This document shows positions 3,337 through 63,562 of a stretch of 64,000 nt of DNA, in pieces. The stretch is from Bacillota bacterium. GTDB lineage: Bacteria > Bacillota > Clostridia > Christensenellales > UBA1242. The notes beneath the pieces are model-generated. The model was not told the DNA's origin and did not search any database. It saw only the letters and a list, made by a program, of their open reading frames with translations. Location: NCBI GenBank assembly GCA_009787915.1, contig WQSK01000001.1:7119-71118 (forward strand). The letters are read 5' to 3'. A program made the translations under genes and the position numbers. Position 1 is the first letter of the stretch, and each line of letters starts with the position of its first letter.

Positions 3337-4096
3337 AACAATTAATTATAATAATGGCGACAAATATGTTGGTGACATCGTGGGCGGAAAGCGCGAGGGT
3401 TTTGGCAAGTATACCATAAAAGACGGTGGCACCTATTCGGGGCAATGGGGTGACGACCGAAAACAGGGGCGCGGAAAGTTTGATTATCCAAGTGGTGCGG
3501 TGTACGAGGGCTATTGGCACAATGACCAAAAGCAAGGACTTGGGTCTTATTATTTTTCTAACGGGGATATTTATGTTGGGAACTTTGAAAACGATATGCC
3601 GAACGGGCAAGGCACATACGCATGGCGTATAAACGGTGATAGGTACGAGGGGGACTTTGTAGACGGGGTTCCGCACGGTGAAGGCACACATATGTTTACC
3701 GACGGAAATGTTTATCAGGGTGCTTTTGAAGAAGGCTTTATGCAGGGAGAGGGTGTTTTCTATTATAAAAGCGGCGGCAGGTATACTGGGGCTTGGAAAA
3801 ACGACAAACGTCACGGGAAAGGTGTTTTGTCACTCAGTGAAAAAACAGGTTATAACGGCGACTGGGTCGATGACATGCGTCATGGAAAAGGTGTGTACCA
3901 CCTTGCAAACGGCGAGTTCTATGACGGGAGTTTCAGCCAAGGCAAGATGAATGGCACAGGCAGATACCATTATGCAAACGGAGATGTCTTGGACGGGATT
4001 TGGCACAGCGACATCAAGAACGGGAAAGGCACCTATATATACGCAGACGGTAGGCGCGAGGACCACATATATCAAGGCGACGGCCGTGTAGGTTAG
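3326..4096 (+). CDS. MORN-repeat protein
   Basis: About 10 tandem YxGxWxxxxxxGxG repeats (YEGYWHNDQKQGLG, YTGAWKNDKRHGKG and others). Overlaps the stop of the ClpX-like gene by 11 nt. Confidence 0.85.
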   Translation: MQTETINYNNGDKYVGDIVGGKREGFGKYTIKDGGTYSGQWGDDRKQGRGKFDYPSGAVYEGYWHNDQKQGLGSYYFSNGDIYVGNFENDMPNGQGTYAWRINGDRYEGDFVDGVPHGEGTHMFTDGNVYQGAFEEGFMQGEGVFYYKSGGRYTGAWKNDKRHGKGVLSLSEKTGYNGDWVDDMRHGKGVYHLANGEFYDGSFSQGKMNGTGRYHYANGDVLDGIWHSDIKNGKGTYIYADGRREDHIYQGDGRVG

Positions 4097-56173: not shown

Positions 56174-56262
56174 GGAGGGTTACCGAAGTGGTCATAACGG
56201 GGCGGTCTTGAAAACCGTTAGGGTGCAAGCCCACAAGAGTTCGAATCTCTTACCCTCCTCCA
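56174..56262 (+). tRNA. tRNA-Ser (anticodon UGA), class II with long variable arm
   Basis: Hand-folded: acceptor GGAGGGT/ACCCTCC, anticodon loop CTTGAAA, variable arm GGGTGCAAGCCC, T-arm AGAGTTCGAATCTCT, discriminator T, encoded CCA. TGgTATAAT promoter at 56149-57. Confidence 0.9.
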
Positions 56263-57776
56263 AGCGATTTAATATGCGGACTGGAAAGTTCGTTGTAATC
56301 AATGCCTTGTTCGTGCAAGGTAATTTTAAGGTCGTTTAGGGTTATCGGATCGACTTTGTCAAAGTTATAAAACATAAAAATTCCGTGTTCCAAAACCCAA
56401 ATAGAATTAACAAATCCATGTATGATTTTCTTTTGGTACGTAGGGTCGTTTATATCTCCGCCAATAAATTGTTGCAGTCGTTTTCTATAATCTTCCGCAG
56501 TTCTCGGCAAGTTAGATATATGTCGGAGTTTTGACAACTCGATGTTTAAGTCACTTTTTTGTATCTCGAGGTCTTTGCTACGTTGGTTGATTTTTGAAAC
56601 TATTGTTTGACCTTGTGCCACAAGTAAAGTGTCAATCAATTTTTCAATTTCCCGGTCGATGACAGATATGCGTTTTTCGTACTCTTTAACCCGTTGCGTG
56701 GTTATATTATTGGCGTGATAATCAGAGAGCAATTTACTTGCACGTTCTATGTTCTTTGCGTTTGATATGAACTCGATAATGTCTTGGACAACCGACTTTT
56801 CTAACTCGGACTTGTTCTCGTTTGATTTATGACAATCCTTGAACTTGTGTCTGTTACTGCAAACATAGTATCTAAAATTTGTTTCGCCATTTCGGACTTT
56901 ACCGCAAACGCCATTCATAGTAGCACCACAATGTCCGCAGTATGCCTTGCCAGTCAAAAGATACTCGACCTTTGCTTTACCTTGGGCGGACAAACGCTTT
57001 TTCGTTGCACACATCTTTTGTACTTCTTCAAAAAGTTTATCGTCGATAAGCCTGGGGTATATGTTGGTGTATTCAACACCATGACGTTCAAGTATTCCGA
57101 TGTAGTTTTTGTTTTTCAAGTTGTGGTAAATGTTTGTGACACTCCAAGGCTCGCCACTTCTATTGCGTATACCTTTTTCGTTAAGTTCTTTGCAAATCTC
57201 TTTCTTAGGTTTTCCGCTTGCATAGTCTGAAAAAATCTTTTTCATAATTTCGGCTTTGGGTTTATCAATTTGAATTTTCTTGTCAACAACCTTGTACCCA
57301 TACGTCACAATTCCGCCAGTCCAGTTCCCCTTGTCAAGATTGATTTGATTGCCACGTTTAATTTTCTGAGAGAGTTCCACTGAATAGAACTGGTTGTAAC
57401 CCTCTATGACACTTTCTAACAAAATGCCCTCTGGCGAGTCCGCTATGGCTTCCGTTGCCGACACGACCTTAACGCCTGCTTCTTTAAGTTGTCGTTTATA
57501 AACCACACTTTCATATTTGTCCCTAGAAAATCGGTCAAGTTTATACACCAAAATCACGTCAAATATTTCTTGTTTGCTGTCCGAAATCATGCGTTGAAAT
57601 TCAGGACGTTTGTCATTAGTCCCCGTCATAGCACGATCAACATACTCGCCTACAATGGCGAGATTTTGTCGTTGGGCAAATTCCCCACAGACTTTAACCT
57701 GTCCTTCAATCGACTGTTCCGTTTGGTTGTTGGAACTGTACCTTGCGTAGATTACTGCTTTGTTCATTTTACACAC
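56250..57776 (-). CDS. large serine recombinase
   Basis: N-terminal resolvase domain AVIYARYSSNNQ...SIEGQ, recombinase domain, Zn-ribbon (CGHCG...C..RYYVC), coiled coil. The last codons overlap the tRNA-Ser 3' end. Confidence 0.9.
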   Translation of the reverse strand: MCKMNKAVIYARYSSNNQTEQSIEGQVKVCGEFAQRQNLAIVGEYVDRAMTGTNDKRPEFQRMISDSKQEIFDVILVYKLDRFSRDKYESVVYKRQLKEAGVKVVSATEAIADSPEGILLESVIEGYNQFYSVELSQKIKRGNQINLDKGNWTGGIVTYGYKVVDKKIQIDKPKAEIMKKIFSDYASGKPKKEICKELNEKGIRNRSGEPWSVTNIYHNLKNKNYIGILERHGVEYTNIYPRLIDDKLFEEVQKMCATKKRLSAQGKAKVEYLLTGKAYCGHCGATMNGVCGKVRNGETNFRYYVCSNRHKFKDCHKSNENKSELEKSVVQDIIEFISNAKNIERASKLLSDYHANNITTQRVKEYEKRISVIDREIEKLIDTLLVAQGQTIVSKINQRSKDLEIQKSDLNIELSKLRHISNLPRTAEDYRKRLQQFIGGDINDPTYQKKIIHGFVNSIWVLEHGIFMFYNFDKVDPITLNDLKITLHEQGIDYNELSSPHIKSLGGG

Positions 57777-57810
57777 TCCTTTTTGCCCTTAACAAGCAAC
57801 CGATCGTAGG

Positions 57811-57941
57811 GCTGCCTTTTGGGCTTAGCCGACAAACCGCACAACCGCCCAAGGCAGTCAAGGTGGAAGTTCCAAGGGAAAACTACCTTGACGGTCTTGG
57901 GCGTGTTGTGCTACCAACATCGGCTATGCCCAAAAGGGAGC
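57811..57941. other. 130-nt extended imperfect hairpin, single-strand-origin-like
   Basis: Nested helices: 57815-24/57928-37, 57826-32/57920-26, 57839-45/57905-11, 57846-53/57896-903 and 57857-64/57885-92. Confidence 0.6.
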
Positions 57942-58402
57942 ACACCAACTGTACCACAAGTGATGGGAAAAGTTAGGTTTTTGCTGTGTAAAGTATTGGT
58001 TTTGTGTAGGTAAAGTCATGGGACAAATTAAAAACGATTTTTTAAAATTCTAGTAGTCAAAATGGGTACTTCTTGCGTTCTCCATGTAGGGAAAGTTTTT
58101 TTGATTTACCCCCTCACTTTTGACCTTTGTCGTGACCTACTGTTAAGGCAAAAGAAAAACAAATGACAGCAAATCTTTAAGAGGTGGCTGTGCAAAAAAC
58201 TATTCGAGTACAAATCGGCAGTTATCGGCTTCGTGACAAAGTTACGAGGTCGCTTTTGCCATGCGTGCCGATTTATGCAGAAGTCACAACAAAGGTAGCA
58301 GTAAGTCTTGCGGAACGAGTGGCAAGCCTTCTAGTCGATTGCTATCAAATGAGCAAAGCGAATGAGCCGAGAGTGTGCAAACACACTTGCGACCGCACAG
58401 TG

Positions 58403-58488
58403 GTGGCGAGAGACGAGGCTTGCCCGTCTCCGCCACGTGCGCCGCAAGGGGTTGCTAGCGAAGCGGTTGTCATACTTGATATTGGCAA
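58403..58488 (+). other. GC-rich 12-bp hairpin plus small hairpin presenting ACTTGATATT in its loop; candidate nick/double-strand origin
   Basis: Stem 58403-15 / 58425-36. TGTCA (58469-73) / TGGCA (58484-88) flank the loop TACTTGATAT. The element lies 34 nt upstream of the rep ATG. Confidence 0.45.
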
Positions 58489-58521
58489 CACTTAAAAATT
58501 CTAAAAGAGGTGGATAATCAC

Positions 58522-59448
58522 ATGGACAAGTTCATGTCAAAACGTGTTGAGAGGGTTTTGAAACCTAACGCACATTTATTATCTAAACAAAAGAGAGAGC
58601 AAGTAAATACTCGGATAAATCGGTTTAAGTTCTTTACTGAAATCATTTACTATCACGAACCTTTTGATATCCTGACTGGTAAGAAAGATTATAACTGGGT
58701 AGATACTGAAACTGGCAAAATCATCTCAGCGAGTAAACGAAAAGAGATAACAGACCAAGAGCAAATTGACGAATACGCAAGTCGTGGCGAGATTTTGGAA
58801 ATCGACAACGGATTTGACCGCAGTCAATACGAGAGTTGTCGCAGAGCAAAAGACAATTTTTATGGATATGCTTTGTGTAATGACTGGGTTTATTTTTGTA
58901 CTTTTACGATTGCGAAAAGCGAACATGACCATGATGACAAAGCAACAAAATACTACTGGCAAATGTTCCGCCAAAAGTTACAAAAGAGATTTCCAACTGT
59001 TAAGATCCTTGCAGTTCCTGAACGCCACGCCAAAGGCAACATTCATTTTCATGCTTTACTTGGGGATTGTGACTTAGAAAATATTTTAGTCGTGGCAATC
59101 AACCCACACACAAGCGAACCTGTATTACAAAGTGGTCGACAAGTTTATAATTTGCCACTCTGGGACAAAGGTTTTTCAACTGTTGTTAAAATCGACCAAG
59201 AGAGTATTGAAAACCAGTTGAAAGCAATCAACTACATTATTGGATATGTGACCAAGCAAGAGAACAGCATTGGGCTTAATCAGAAACGCTATTATCGAAC
59301 TAGAAACTTGGATTTCAAAAACACCGAGATAAAGTTTACTGACAAAGCGAAATATGAGAGTCTGCTATTAAGTACGTTTGATATAAACGCAAAACTCGTC
59401 AAACACAAAGAGAACGACAGAATGATTGTTTTTAGGGTGTACAATTAA
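58522..59448 (+). CDS. HUH rolling-circle replication initiator (two-Tyr, phiX gpA / gokushovirus VP4-like)
   Basis: Motif 1 FCTFTIA, motif 2 HFHALLG, motif 3 [11 protein letters not shown] 58522 follows an AGAGG RBS. Confidence 0.75.
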
Positions 59449-59473
59449 GAAGGTTAATGGTACAATCACAACG

Positions 59474-60451
59474 ATGAAAATCGTTTCATTTTTTGCAGGT
59501 GCTGGGGGTCTTGACCTTGGCTTTGAAAAAGCGGGGTTTCACACTGTTTGGGCGAATGAATACGATAAAACAATTTGGGCTACTTATGAAAAAAATTTTC
59601 CTAATTCTAAACTTGATAAACGAAGCATAACAGATGTATCTCCCAAAGAAGTTCCCGATTGTGACGGAATCATTGGCGGACCGCCATGTCAAAGTTGGAG
59701 TGAAGCCGGTGCGGGGCGTGGCATTGATGACGATAGGGGTAAATTGTTTTTAGACTATATTAGGATATTAAAAGATAAAAAGCCAAAGTTTTTCTTGTGT
59801 GAAAATGTGGGCGGTATGCTTTTAGATAAACACAAAGTTAATTTCGATAAGTTTATTTCCGAGTTTGAAAGTGCAGGATATAATGTTTCTTGGCAACTTG
59901 TTGACGCTAATGATTTTGATGTCCCTCAAAATCGCAAGCGTGTCATCATCGTGGGATATAGAAAAGATTTAAATAAAAAGTTTGAATTTCCACCTGTGCA
60001 AGAATATAAACCAAATTTGAAAGACGCTATATGGGATTTGCGACAAGCCCAACCTGCTAAACAGCATAATAAGTCATGGGGGCTTGAATTACCAATTCCG
60101 AATCACGAATATATGAATGGCGGATTCTCTACAATCTTTATGTCACGTAATCGTGTACGTTCTTGGGACGAACCTTCTTTCACTATCCAAGCAGGTGGCA
60201 GACACGCCCCTATCCACCCACAAGCCCCTAAAATGCTTTTTGTCGAACAAAACAAAAGAATATTCGTTCCCGGTAAAGAAGATGATTATAGGCGGTTGTC
60301 CGTGCGTGAGTGTGCAAGAATACAAACATTCCCCGATAGTTTTATTTTTATTTATAATGACATTGCCGACGGTTACAAAATGGTGGGTAATGCCGTGCCA
60401 GTAAACCTAGCGTATGCGATTGCAAAAAAGATAAAGGAAGATTTGAAATGA
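59474..60451 (+). CDS. DNA (cytosine-5) methyltransferase, M.HaeIII-like
   Basis: Motif [46 protein letters not shown]. The TRD segment [33 protein letters not shown] resembles M.HaeIII as I recall it. Confidence 0.9.
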
Positions 60452-61404
60452 GAACAACAATAAACTCAACAATTAAAGGCAAGGCATATGAATACGCTTG
60501 CGTGTTGGCGATAAAGGAACTTGTCACGCCTATTCGTCCAGTTGAAATCATAGCGAATTCAAGTCTTGAAATAGCAGAACAAAGATATAACGAAATCACG
60601 CAAGACGAGCAAGCCGAAATGTTGAGATCCGCAAAAGCGGGCATGAGCAAAATTATTGAAATGGAACCCAAAGTAACCGACGACGGAGATGATAAATTGA
60701 CCATATCGCTACAACCCGATAATTTGGCGAAAGGTGGGGATATTCGTGATGTCCTGATTATCCGACGTTCAATCAAGTGGGAAATCGGAGTTTCGGTTAA
60801 ACATAACCACGAGGCGTTAAAACACTCACGGCTTTCGATGAGTATTGATTTTGGCAAACTTTGGCTTGGTGCAAATTGTTCCAAAGATTACTTCACTGAA
60901 ATAAAACCTTTGTTTGACATGTTGTCAAAAGAAAAGTCTTGCGGGAAATTGTGGTCGCAGTTGCCAAGCAAGGAGAATGCCGTATATGTTCCGTTATTAA
61001 CTGCTTTCAAAAATGAGTTTATTAAACTTAATTCTCAAAACGAAGACGTAACCGAAAATCTAATTCGCTATCTGCTTGGAAGCAACGGGAAAGACTATTA
61101 CAAACTTATCCACCGCAATAATAACATTGCTACGATTATTCCATTTAACTTGTTCGGCACATTAAACACAAGCGGTAAAAACAAGCCAACTATAACTATC
61201 CCAAATATCGAATTACCTACGCGAATTATTGAGTTTGATTTCAAAGAAAAATCACAAACCACGTTGATATTAACAATGAATAATGGTTGGTCAATTTCTT
61301 TCCGAATTCACAATGCAAGTTCCAAAGTTGAAACAAGTTTGAAATTCGATATTAATTTACAAAGCAAGCCCGAAAAAATGTTTTATATAGATGTTAAGTG
61401 GTAA
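60448..61404 (+). CDS. putative cognate type II restriction endonuclease
   Basis: ATGA overlap with the MTase stop. 318 aa. No independent motif recognised, so the call rests on position and size. Confidence 0.5.
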
Positions 61405-61485: not shown

Positions 61486-62553
61486 TTGAGAAAGAAAAAT
61501 CCTAGATACAAAGAATATTTGAGACGCAAAAGTAGGAAGAAAGGAGTGCGTAAAGCTGAACGCCGTTACCATAAACCATGCACTAGTAGGAAGAAAGAAG
61601 CTATCAAAATAAAAAAATATAAAAAAACTGATAGATGCCACTTACAAAAGATTAAAGAAAAGAGTTTTAGTCTTCCAGAGGATTTTAGCTTGCTTAGTAA
61701 TCCAGAAGACGTGAAGAGCACTTTTCACTGTATTCGTGAATTCATGATTGCGAATAGAGGTCTGCGCATGAAGATAAAAATCGATGCTAGAAATATTAAA
61801 AATGCAACAGCAGATGCAGTAATGTACCTACTCGCGATGCTTAGAGACAAGCGGAATCAAAATGAAGGTATTAGGTGGTCTGGAGACCTCCCGCTAGTAG
61901 ATGGAGCAAGACGTGTATTTATGGAGTCAGGATTTCTTAGCTACGTTAATAGCTTAAATAATATTATCAAAAACGCCGATAAGGTTGCGATTAAAAATGG
62001 AAAAGAGGTTAAATCAGATCTTGCAAAAGCCATATGCGATTGGGTTATAGACAAAATTGGGTGTACTAGAAATGAAACGAAATTTTTGCAGAAGACTATT
62101 GTAGAGCTTATGGAAAACACGAAAGCACATGCTTACACTGATGACACAGATCTTTTAAAAGATTGGTATTTGTTTGTCGAAAAGCGCAGCTCGAAATTTG
62201 AGTTTGTATTTCTTGACACAGGTGGCAGTATACCTTCGACCATTAAAAAGAGATTTGGAGAAAAGGTTTTTGGTGCTAGGCAAGTAGATTTGATTGAGTC
62301 TGCTTTGGAGGGCGGAGAATTTCGTTCAACTACAAAACTTAAGCATCGAAACAAAGGCTTGCCAAATATTAAACAAAAAATTGAATATGGACATATTAAA
62401 AGTATGGTGATATTATCTAATAGGGCGAAGTGTGAACTGTATAAAGAAAATAATAATCTAGTTATAAAAAAAGATGAGCAAAAAAATAAATTATATGGTA
62501 CGCTATACTACTGGGAAGTAGACACTGTGAAATTGAAAGGAGAAGCATGTTAA
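61486..62553 (+). CDS. GHKL (anti-sigma-kinase-like) ATPase with an extremely basic ~60-aa N-terminus
   Basis: GGAGG RBS and TTG start. N-box IVELMENTKAHAY, G1-like FLDTGGSIP, G2-like NKGLPNI. The first 60 aa are about half Lys/Arg. Confidence 0.6.
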   Translation: MRKKNPRYKEYLRRKSRKKGVRKAERRYHKPCTSRKKEAIKIKKYKKTDRCHLQKIKEKSFSLPEDFSLLSNPEDVKSTFHCIREFMIANRGLRMKIKIDARNIKNATADAVMYLLAMLRDKRNQNEGIRWSGDLPLVDGARRVFMESGFLSYVNSLNNIIKNADKVAIKNGKEVKSDLAKAICDWVIDKIGCTRNETKFLQKTIVELMENTKAHAYTDDTDLLKDWYLFVEKRSSKFEFVFLDTGGSIPSTIKKRFGEKVFGARQVDLIESALEGGEFRSTTKLKHRNKGLPNIKQKIEYGHIKSMVILSNRAKCELYKENNNLVIKKDEQKNKLYGTLYYWEVDTVKLKGEAC

Positions 62554-62885
62554 TGGAAAAGATTAAGATAAATGTCGCACATGACTTTACTGAGATACCG
62601 GGTCCACGCTATAAAAAGGATGGTAAATTTTCTGGCGAGGAATTTAGGGATAAACACCTAATCCCTAACTACGATAAGGCAAAGGCTAATGGTGTAAAGA
62701 TAATGGTCAATCTTGACGGTGGGTATGGCTATCCAGTTTCTTTTCTCGAGGAATCTTTTGGTGGACTCGCAAGGATTTATAGAGACGATAATGTTGTGGG
62801 TATGTTTGATTTTGTTTCAAAAGAGGAGCCATCTTTGATAGATGATATCAGAAAATATATATTGGATGCGAATAAGAGGGTTTGA
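62547..62885 (+). CDS. STAS-like DUF4325 protein
   Basis: KIMVNLDGGYGYPVSFLEESFGGL fits the DUF4325 pattern. The start overlaps the upstream stop (ATG 62547, or TAATG at 62553). Confidence 0.6.
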   Translation: MLMEKIKINVAHDFTEIPGPRYKKDGKFSGEEFRDKHLIPNYDKAKANGVKIMVNLDGGYGYPVSFLEESFGGLARIYRDDNVVGMFDFVSKEEPSLIDDIRKYILDANKRV

Positions 62886-62886
62886 A

Positions 62887-63480
62887 ATGTCAACAAGAAT
62901 AATACAGAGGATATTTTTAATAATAGGTATATTTATCATTATTTCTCTAATTGTTTGGCTAGTACTTGCTTCGAGACTTGACATAAACAAAGAGTCTTTT
63001 TATCATATTTCTTTGTCGGAAGGTATACCAATTATTCTAATTGCCGTGGCAACGATGTTTCTGTCTTTTTGGTTTTCTAATAAAATCTCCGATGAGAAAA
63101 AGCAAAAAGAAACTATATATGAGTATCTTAAAAAGATTATAACCATGTTTGAGAAGATAGATTCTATTGTCGAGGCTTATGATTTAACATCGGCTGCTAA
63201 AATAAGAAATTTCACATGTTGCATGCAAGTTGTTAGTGCGTTTAGAAAGTTAAGCAATACAGTAGATACACTCAAAAAAATGGATGCGGAGCGCTTTTGT
63301 AAAGATGATTTATGTGCGTTAGAGTCACATATTAAGGAATTTAATGACTACATCACTGGGTTCAAGTTTGAAAATGATGTATCGGCCAAGTCGAGGAACG
63401 CTTTGATAATTAAAGTCGGAAAATTTACAAGTGACGCTGGTAATATAATTTTCATATTCGGAGTAAACCTATTTAGATAA
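62887..63480 (+). CDS. 2-TM membrane protein with ~110-aa cytoplasmic helical domain
   Basis: ATG lies 1 nt after the upstream stop. TM1 IFLIIGIFIIISLIVWLVLA, TM2 IPIILIAVATMFLSFWF. Confidence 0.6.
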   Translation: MSTRIIQRIFLIIGIFIIISLIVWLVLASRLDINKESFYHISLSEGIPIILIAVATMFLSFWFSNKISDEKKQKETIYEYLKKIITMFEKIDSIVEAYDLTSAAKIRNFTCCMQVVSAFRKLSNTVDTLKKMDAERFCKDDLCALESHIKEFNDYITGFKFENDVSAKSRNALIIKVGKFTSDAGNIIFIFGVNLFR

Positions 63481-63562
63481 TGAACCTCCCAACAACGCCA
63501 CGGCAGATAAACAACCTTGACAGTTCGTTTATTACGTCGTATGCTCCTCCAAGCGAAGCGCA

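Follow-up and report, generated by a model that had tools for sequence, protein, structure and literature searches.

The window, by which we mean the whole stretch of 64,000 nucleotides analysed, contains an integrated element of about 7.35 kb between two att repeats (Table 1). At the left end of the element the gene of a large serine recombinase (LSR) overlaps with its 3' end the tRNA-Ser(tga) gene at 56174-56262; it starts with the ATG at 57767, preceded by a ribosome-binding site (RBS), AGGAG, at about 57777-81. The + strand of the element encodes a small ORF, a rolling-circle Rep protein of the HUH type, a HaeIII-type restriction-modification pair and three further genes. The extended hairpin that is the subject of this analysis lies between the LSR and Rep genes and begins 43 nt upstream of the LSR start codon.

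Table 1. Positions in the window of the hairpin, its promoter-like parts and the surrounding element.
Feature	Position	Strand	Remarks
Extended imperfect hairpin	57811..57941	+	fold z, covariation in 8 homologues, covariance-model match
GTCAAGG, 5' (template) arm, pairs with the -35 box	57857..57863	+	alignment columns 44-50, nearly invariant
Template-arm side of the -10 bubble, CAAACC	57833..57838	+	columns 17-22, A in 17-31 of 37; unpaired in the fold
-35 hexamer TTGACG, 3' (non-template) arm	57888..57893	+	alignment columns 216-221
Extended -10: TG 57909-10, C, TACCAA 57912-17	57909..57917	+	spacer from -35 of 18 nt
Large serine recombinase (LSR) gene	56250..57767	-	Pfam Resolvase, Recombinase and Zn_ribbon_recom
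HUH rolling-circle Rep gene	58510..59448	+	PF23343 at 7.1e-13; PHROG 3419 (rolling circle replication initiation)
Candidate double-strand origin (dso): small hairpin with ACTTGATATT (58474-58483) in the loop	58465..58491	+	only exact copy in the 64-kb window; fold
att repeat TCTTACCCTCCTCCAA, 16 nt	56248..56263	.	direct-repeat family D1; at the 3' ends of tRNA-Ser and the LSR gene
Second att repeat TCTTACCCTCCTCCAA	63594..63609	.	direct-repeat family D1; other element end

The Rep protein carries an HUH motif (NIHFHALL) and a tyrosine motif (YIIGYVTK). Of its two possible starts, 58510 and 58522, the ATG at 58522 is likely; in the identical contig L001 a 308-aa product is called. The earlier note had placed an HUH Rep gene 580 bp downstream of the hairpin, which agrees with the distance of about 570-580 bp to these starts. 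The remaining cargo comprises the methylase and endonuclease of the HaeIII-type pair (59426-61404) and, at 61486-63480, a 355-aa protein (PHROG 3364, unknown function), a DUF4325 STAS-like protein and a 212-aa protein, which may form a second defence module. A third, degenerate att repeat is found at 63537-63556, 57 nt before the right-hand att. The overlap of the LSR stop end with a tRNA 3' end, with att inside both, recurs in two related loci (L003 6524-6596 and L007 6551-6624), and a tmRNA gene is nearby in L186; it appears that these serine recombinases use tRNA 3' ends as targets, which is more familiar from tyrosine integrases.

An imperfect inverted repeat adjoining a recombinase gene could be the core of attP, as the earlier note had allowed, or some other recombinase substrate. 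The att repeats, however, lie elsewhere, at the two element ends and in the 3' end of the LSR gene, and the hairpin stands intact inside the integrated element, not split by integration; the attP reading was therefore rejected. Moreover, the hairpin spans 130 bp with a centre that varies among copies, compared with the 40-50 bp of LSR att sites (PMC12286644). A recombination site of any kind is thus hardly credible here.

The motif ACTTGATATT of the candidate dso stands 27-39 nt before rep, and we take it to be akin to the nick regions of phiX174 (AACTTG^ATATT) and of the pC194-family plasmids (CTTG^ATA). Since this nick-type motif is on the + strand, the + strand is likely the one displaced during replication, and since the extended hairpin lies on the same strand about 540 nt upstream of the candidate nick, it would be exposed last, in the usual place of a single-strand origin (sso). 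In related loci matches to the nick motif occur at chance level only. Three further structures may be mentioned in this connection. A weak alignment to the Rfam family 'DUF2693 RNA' at 58465-58540 shares CAUACUUGAUA with the consensus of that family, which hints that the Rfam motif may itself be an origin of rolling-circle replication (RCR). A second GC-rich hairpin at 58386-58449 (+; z -3.9 for 58330-58510) falls within ORF 58184-58495, in its 3' part; the stretch is probably non-coding, since homologues of this ORF stop after about 66 aa, and it may be part of the origin region. Finally, the LSR locus L145, which lacks a copy of the extended hairpin, has on its - strand, at about 3910-3960, a small hairpin with perfect pairing, GTGTAGCCAT-TACTTGATA-ATGGCTACAC, and a nick-type motif CTTGATA in the loop; it looks like another RCR origin.

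Fold and conservation of the hairpin

In the minimum-free-energy DNA fold, positions 57801-57951 of the + strand form a single extended hairpin of -51.5 kcal/mol. The mean of 200 dinucleotide shuffles was -21.2 +/- 2.7 kcal/mol (z -11.3), and none of them folded as well; the - strand, the folding of which had been suggested as well, reached -45.3 kcal/mol (z -8.5). The + strand helices (57815-24/57928-37, 57826-32/57920-26, 57839-55/57894-911 and 57857-66/57883-92) contain all five that had been listed from inspection of the sequence, the third being two of these joined over a 1-nt bulge. With the closing pairs at 57809-13/57939-43 there are about 55 bp in all, so that the extensive pairing described in the earlier note was found again, while its figure of about 40 bp was too low. 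The apex of the hairpin is GGAAGTTCC (57865-57873).

The GC content is 0.54 over 57775-57924 vs 0.35-0.44 on the flanks, and the region is indeed richer in GC than its surroundings. It is also non-coding, as had been assumed: the ORFs 57743-57976 and 57819-58013, which overlap each other across the hairpin, have no Pfam matches, and the homologues of the hairpin differ by paired, compensatory substitutions and not codon by codon. Rfam contains no family matching the hairpin on either strand at the gathering threshold or at E <= 10, and none was matched in 12 related loci. BLASTN of 57780-58520 against phages and plasmids yielded no match, and no PLSDB plasmid showed detectable DNA similarity to the hairpin.

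LSR proteins at 54-61% identity were sought in metagenomes and their contigs retrieved, and seven more distinct hairpins were found directly upstream of these LSR genes. For the resulting alignment of eight sequences RNAalifold predicts 42 pairs, 30 of which show compensatory changes. The proportion of paired cells in the alignment is 91%, vs 71% in shuffles and 32-50% in slid controls, and none of 500 shuffles matched any of the measures of pairing or covariation. In the outer stem, beyond a T-run described below, 12 of 16 pairs covary. The compensatory changes and the shuffles demonstrate that the pairing is under selection. A lack of such changes in homologues, which the earlier note had named as grounds for refutation, is not what was observed.

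Seventy nine additional loci with LSRs at 37-51% identity were taken from species-representative genomes, mostly metagenome-assembled genomes labelled Clostridia or Christensenellaceae/Christensenella. Folding of the regions upstream of these LSR genes revealed related hairpins sharing GTCAAGG...CCTTGAC. A simple regular expression missed distant copies, and heuristics based on boxes and duplexes were noisy and mis-registered; a covariance model (R1) was used instead, whose 23 seeds were arm sequences, 20 of them shortened by trimming of a long apex. In this 23-sequence set 14 of 18 core pairs covary, so that the conservation of pairing by compensatory change, which the earlier note had proposed to examine, extends to the distant homologues.

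With the covariance model 38 matches at E < 1e-5 were obtained in 968 kb of related loci, 29 of them in the 79 genome loci; they represent 37 distinct copies with a median ssDNA-fold energy of -29 kcal/mol. The window contains one copy only, matched at 57819-57931 with 59.2 bits on the + strand vs 20.9 bits on the - strand. The metagenome scan gave one new locus. No relatives were identified when IMG/VR was scanned with the Rep or the LSR protein alone, and the pattern AGCACA..GTCAAGGKTA, which missed the window's own variant, gave 120 chance matches in IMG/VR, none with a second arm. Two dsDNA phages (LSR identity 36-37%) and three short virome contigs (36-38%), with an overall LSR range of 35-38%, had no copy of the hairpin.

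The hairpin and its neighbouring genes

Each of the 38 matches is on the strand antisense to an LSR gene, at a distance of 20-600 nt (median 160) upstream of the start of this gene; a second LSR gene in locus L133 is also preceded by a match. Only some tens of nucleotides separate the hairpin from an RBS, that of the LSR gene or that of a short leader ORF, which is an ordinary arrangement of promoter and gene. Such a short ORF in the LSR sense, with a strong AAGGAG RBS 5-15 nt after the hairpin, precedes the LSR gene in L153, L156, L161-L163, L166, L173, L175, L197 and other loci, and in L170 and L184 a further serine-recombinase-like gene stands between the short ORF and the LSR gene.

The situation is different for Rep. 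Only in the window's element does a Rep gene lie beside the hairpin; neither Rep nor relaxase genes were seen near the other 37 copies, over as much as about 6 kb of their cargo side. Homologues of Rep were found in two loci only (L149 and L206), both without the hairpin and with an LSR gene that follows a co-oriented gene. The earlier note had suggested looking for homologous hairpins next to related Rep genes, and here the link to Rep fails. As all 38 copies are upstream of an LSR gene and the Rep-bearing relatives have no hairpin, the hairpin belongs with the recombinase gene and not with Rep.

The other neighbours are variable. Beside the hairpin we found LexA-like repressors, sigma-70 region 4 proteins, restriction-modification systems, GmrSD and a Schlafen-like helicase, and the gene on the cargo side varies in identity, distance and even orientation, while the LSR gene is constant. 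A LexA-like gene faces away from the hairpin in about ten distant loci (L147, L151, L152, L156, L170, L175, L180, L182 and others), about 400 nt off and on the opposite strand; in L182 it matches NCBIfam TIGR00498 with 150 bits vs a cut-off of 111 bits. Behind the LexA-like gene comes a conserved series of ORFs of about 100, 85, 90, 115, 430 and 171 aa without family matches. In the close clade, a small conserved ORF is divergent from the LSR gene (window, about 58184-58380 (+); L003 4414-4575; L005 4548-4706; L007 4446-4637; L207 77-238; L212 128-295). Its product has the pattern ..IQIGSYRLRDK.TR..LPC...KVA..L.ERVA.LLVDCYQ and no Pfam or PHROG match; it is possibly a regulator or a recombination directionality factor.

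Loci L003 and L004, which come from two samples, encode the same LSR protein and have the same chromosomal neighbours, the genes of IMPDH and GMP synthase. Their first approximately 2.2 kb next to the LSR gene are colinear; the genes called on the cargo side are those of a type I restriction-modification system in L003 and short unknown ORFs in L004. This points to a swap or a deletion of cargo behind a constant module of LSR gene and hairpin.

Promoter elements in the stem

On the strand antisense to the LSR gene, which in the window is the + strand, the 3' arm of the stem carries a -35 box and an extended -10 box. Among the 37 distinct copies, the -35 hexamer has T in 37, T in 36, G in 34, A in 32 and C in 35 at consecutive positions (86-100% per position), followed by A in 16 or G in 17. 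Positions -15 and -14 are T in 29 and G in 36 copies (78% and 97%); there is T at -12 in 31 (84%), A at -11 in 34 (92%) and T at -7 in 18 (49%). The consensus spacer is 17 nt, that of the window 18 nt, and the -10 box of the window, TACCAA, matches the consensus at three of six positions and has no T at -7. With -35 and -10 boxes at 17 +/- 1 nt on one arm within a stem, the hairpin has the layout of an RNA-polymerase-type ssDNA promoter or sso.

The opposite arm is complementary through the -35 box and the spacer; at the -10 box it has a run of A (the T-run in the LSR sense) and never a -10 box of its own. The median pairing probability in the ssDNA fold is 0.88 for the -35 box, 0.76 for the spacer and 0.82 at -12, vs 0.10 at -11 to -8 and 0.09 at -7. 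In the open complex of sigma-70 promoters, and on fork-junction templates, the DNA is duplex up to -12 and the strands separate at -12/-11. With -35 to -12 paired and -11 to -7 open, the predicted fold resembles a pre-melted promoter aimed at the LSR gene. In all 38 matches the folded strand is the template strand of the LSR gene, and the promoter points out of the hairpin base into this gene. In the window, there is no room for a promoter between the hairpin and the LSR RBS.

A different origin of the LSR transcript would be a start farther upstream, with the hairpin being a 5' untranslated leader through which the stability, the processing (by RNase III, for instance) or the translation of the recombinase message is controlled, and with the boxes kept because the 5' arm overlaps a divergent promoter. 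Such a leader would fit the position of the hairpin, always immediately 5' of the RBS of the LSR gene or of a short leader ORF; covariation is the same for RNA and ssDNA and cannot tell them apart, and G.U pairs are possible between the U-rich 3' side of the RNA and its purine-rich 5' side. Over the whole hairpin there are 132 wobble pairs in the LSR sense vs 99 on the antisense strand, a difference that decides for neither strand. The comparison of RNA fold energies is likewise mixed, one strand being lower in 24 and the other in 13 copies. In the core pairs, on the other hand, there are 20 G.T wobbles on the strand that corresponds to the + strand of the window vs four positions that would be G.U in the LSR-sense RNA, and core helices formed by this RNA would contain 20 A.C mismatches vs four G.U pairs. 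Within 200 nt upstream of the hairpin there is no excess of conventional promoters in the LSR sense (seven sites in 33 loci vs 15 expected), no Rfam family matches, and a leader leaves unexplained why the pairing ends at the promoter positions -12/-11 and why its 3' arm copies the -35 box and the spacer but never the -10 box. We consider the leader unlikely.

The boxes could also act in ordinary double-stranded DNA, serving the divergent genes (the small ORF or the LexA-like regulator), while the complementary arm with its T-run would be an intrinsic terminator that shields the LSR gene from read-through. In duplex DNA this is a good promoter facing the neighbours, which would alone explain its conservation, and among these neighbours are the LexA-like gene in ten loci and the conserved small ORF in the close clade. 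Furthermore, read in the LSR sense, the sequence shows a GC-rich stem followed by five or six T, which looks like an intrinsic terminator, and in L002, L184 and L007 there are LSR-sense genes ahead of the hairpin. The structure, however, departs from the usual intrinsic terminator, a short GC-rich stem with a loop of 3-8 nt directly before a U-run: the T-run follows the inner stem, but pairing continues beyond it, in an outer stem whose covariation a terminator would not need; the stems are longer (45-55 bp, or 30-55 bp over the full range) and the loops large (apices of 20-110 nt); and the hairpin was not among the terminators called by a scan. Were it a terminator, the LSR gene would go unexpressed, since no promoter intervenes before the RBS. 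The small ORF has a nearer promoter-like site (TTGACC, 58121-58126), and it is the LSR gene and not the facing neighbour that is constant. A duplex promoter with an insulator thus seems improbable.

The third possibility is that the palindrome is recognized as duplex DNA, either as an operator for a protein (the LSR, the LexA-like repressor or the small regulator) or after the excised circle, being supercoiled, has extruded it as a cruciform; such a cruciform could expose the same snap-back promoter without a single-stranded stage. GTCAAGG/CCTTGAC and GCACAAC/GTTGTGC are conserved in sequence inside the stems, regulator genes adjoin, and the apices of the distant copies are AT-rich, a property that favours cruciform extrusion. 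Yet the half-sites are from 20 to 110 bp apart among copies, which leaves no fixed geometry for a dimer, and the stems between the boxes vary freely while remaining complementary, which argues for base pairing and not for protein contacts. No LexA box of the form GAAC-N4-GTTC was found between the hairpin and the LSR start in the 19 loci in which this stretch is at least 120 nt long. We regard recognition of the duplex palindrome as quite unlikely.

A proposed promoter on single-stranded DNA and known systems

The explanation that we prefer, and to which we give an even chance, is that the hairpin is a promoter of the RNA-polymerase type and a priming signal at the same time, working only on ssDNA and tied to the recombinase gene. 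We infer three things: RNA polymerase uses the hairpin, the + strand is the one displaced, and the transcript acts in priming and as mRNA. In this model Rep would nick at ACTTGATATT, rolling-circle synthesis would displace the + strand and the arms of the hairpin would snap back; in the related elements snap-back could follow any transfer that delivers the antisense strand. The 3' arm (TTGACG, 18-nt spacer, TG-C, TACCAA) would be the non-template strand and the 5' arm the template. Host RNA polymerase would meet a duplex from -35 to -12, with -11 to -7 open opposite the A-rich run, as a mimic of a fork junction, and would transcribe along the 5' arm and past the hairpin base, toward lower coordinates, into the recombinase gene. 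The start is predicted opposite approximately 57827, and the leader would be about 60 nt long. The transcript might be the recombinase mRNA, the primer of the complementary strand (the function of an sso) or both.

Once the DNA is double-stranded, the hairpin would be lost and the same -35 and -10 boxes would face the cargo genes; recombinase transcription from this site would stop in the duplex, because the arm facing the LSR gene has no -10 box. The orientation of the genes fits this choice of strand: of 167 cargo-side ORFs in the loci with a hairpin, 138 are encoded by the strand that does not encode the LSR. When that strand is single, it is the genes in the LSR sense that could be transcribed from it. 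A stage of ssDNA is indicated only for the window's element, where Rep is present. It is possible, though we hold this tentatively, that the direction of the promoter is set by the state of the DNA: ssDNA would give a burst of integrase ('zygotic' expression) and priming of the second strand, and the duplex would give expression of regulatory and cargo genes with the integrase silent.

The sso's recognized by RNA polymerase are about 130-200 nt long, act on the displaced strand only and in one orientation, and are read by the host RNA polymerase as a promoter. The hallmark of one type, ssoA, is the CS-6 hexamer TAGCG(T/A) in the terminal loop. Neither strand of the window hairpin contains CS-6, nor does either strand of any of the 37 distinct copies; the hairpin is therefore not an ssoA, and this assignment was rejected. 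The sso's of Gram-positive RCR plasmids (ssoA of pLS1/pE194; ssoU, ssoT and ssoW) are like the window hairpin in being long imperfect hairpins near the dso on its upstream side (PMC4595007). Unlike them, the hairpin goes with a recombinase gene and not with Rep and has no detectable similarity to the DNA of PLSDB plasmids, and its transcript would enter an ORF, whereas theirs stops after about 20 nt. What the earlier note had called an sso-like hairpin thus finds partial support, in its RNA-polymerase-type anatomy, in the strand of the putative nick motif and in its place upstream of the candidate dso, but not in the link to Rep or in membership of ssoA. As the promoter points into the recombinase gene, a single-strand promoter of the LSR gene that can also prime fits better than a lagging-strand origin of Rep.

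Hairpins in ssDNA that RNA polymerase recognizes as both promoter and primer site have been described, namely Frpo of the F plasmid and the sso's of Gram-positive RCR plasmids (PMC4595007, PMC11541004, PMC12672017, bioRxiv 10.64898/2026.01.09.698686). The Frpo, ssi and ssp sequences found in F and IncI1 plasmid leading regions resemble the hairpin as snap-back structures with -35 and -10 boxes; they are active on ssDNA and silent in the duplex, drive early genes and can prime the complementary strand (PMC11541004, PMC12672017, bioRxiv 10.64898/2026.01.09.698686). These, however, are carried by conjugative plasmids of Proteobacteria, where they drive ssb, psiB and anti-defence genes, while the hairpin belongs to small integrative elements of Clostridia and faces an integrase gene; the two show no sequence similarity, and the hexamers of the hairpin would also fire outward in the duplex. 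An sso borne by an integrating element, sso1, is comparable in being required for the second strand to be made efficiently after rolling-circle replication or transfer (PMC4595007), but it is related to the sso of pBAA1/pTA1060 with three stem-loops and follows the relaxase gene nicK, and is not an integrase promoter.

Two other systems share part of the design. In the minus-strand origin of f1/M13, hairpins of the viral strand mimic a promoter from which RNA polymerase makes a primer, and the Rep of the window falls into a Pfam family named for the gene II protein (PF23343). The f1/M13 origin consists of two adjacent hairpins with no downstream gene to express, and it is part of a phage and not of an integrative element. 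In Tn4451/Tn4453, as Lyras and Rood are said to have described in 2000, the large resolvase TnpX is transcribed from a joint promoter. The logic is the same, an LSR gene transcribed only from the transfer intermediate, but there the promoter is built by joining the element ends in a duplex circle and not by folding one strand.

The hairpins are best read as a new family that differs from known ssDNA promoters and sso's in its dedication to a recombinase gene. To our knowledge, ssDNA promoters have so far been described in the leading regions of proteobacterial conjugative plasmids, and RNA-polymerase-type sso's in a few plasmid families. The design would be compact: a mimic of a fork junction with one arm devoid of a -10 box, which would explain the off state in the duplex. 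LSRs are tools of genome engineering, and elements of their native control are of practical interest. If our reading is correct, it provides a sequence signature for spotting integrative elements that replicate or travel as ssDNA, and it extends ssDNA promoters from the leading regions of proteobacterial plasmids to the control of integrases in Firmicutes. It would also mean that the single-stranded state of an element can be coupled to its integration enzyme, and that in gut Clostridia a whole clade of small integrative elements with defence cargo passes through a stage of ssDNA.
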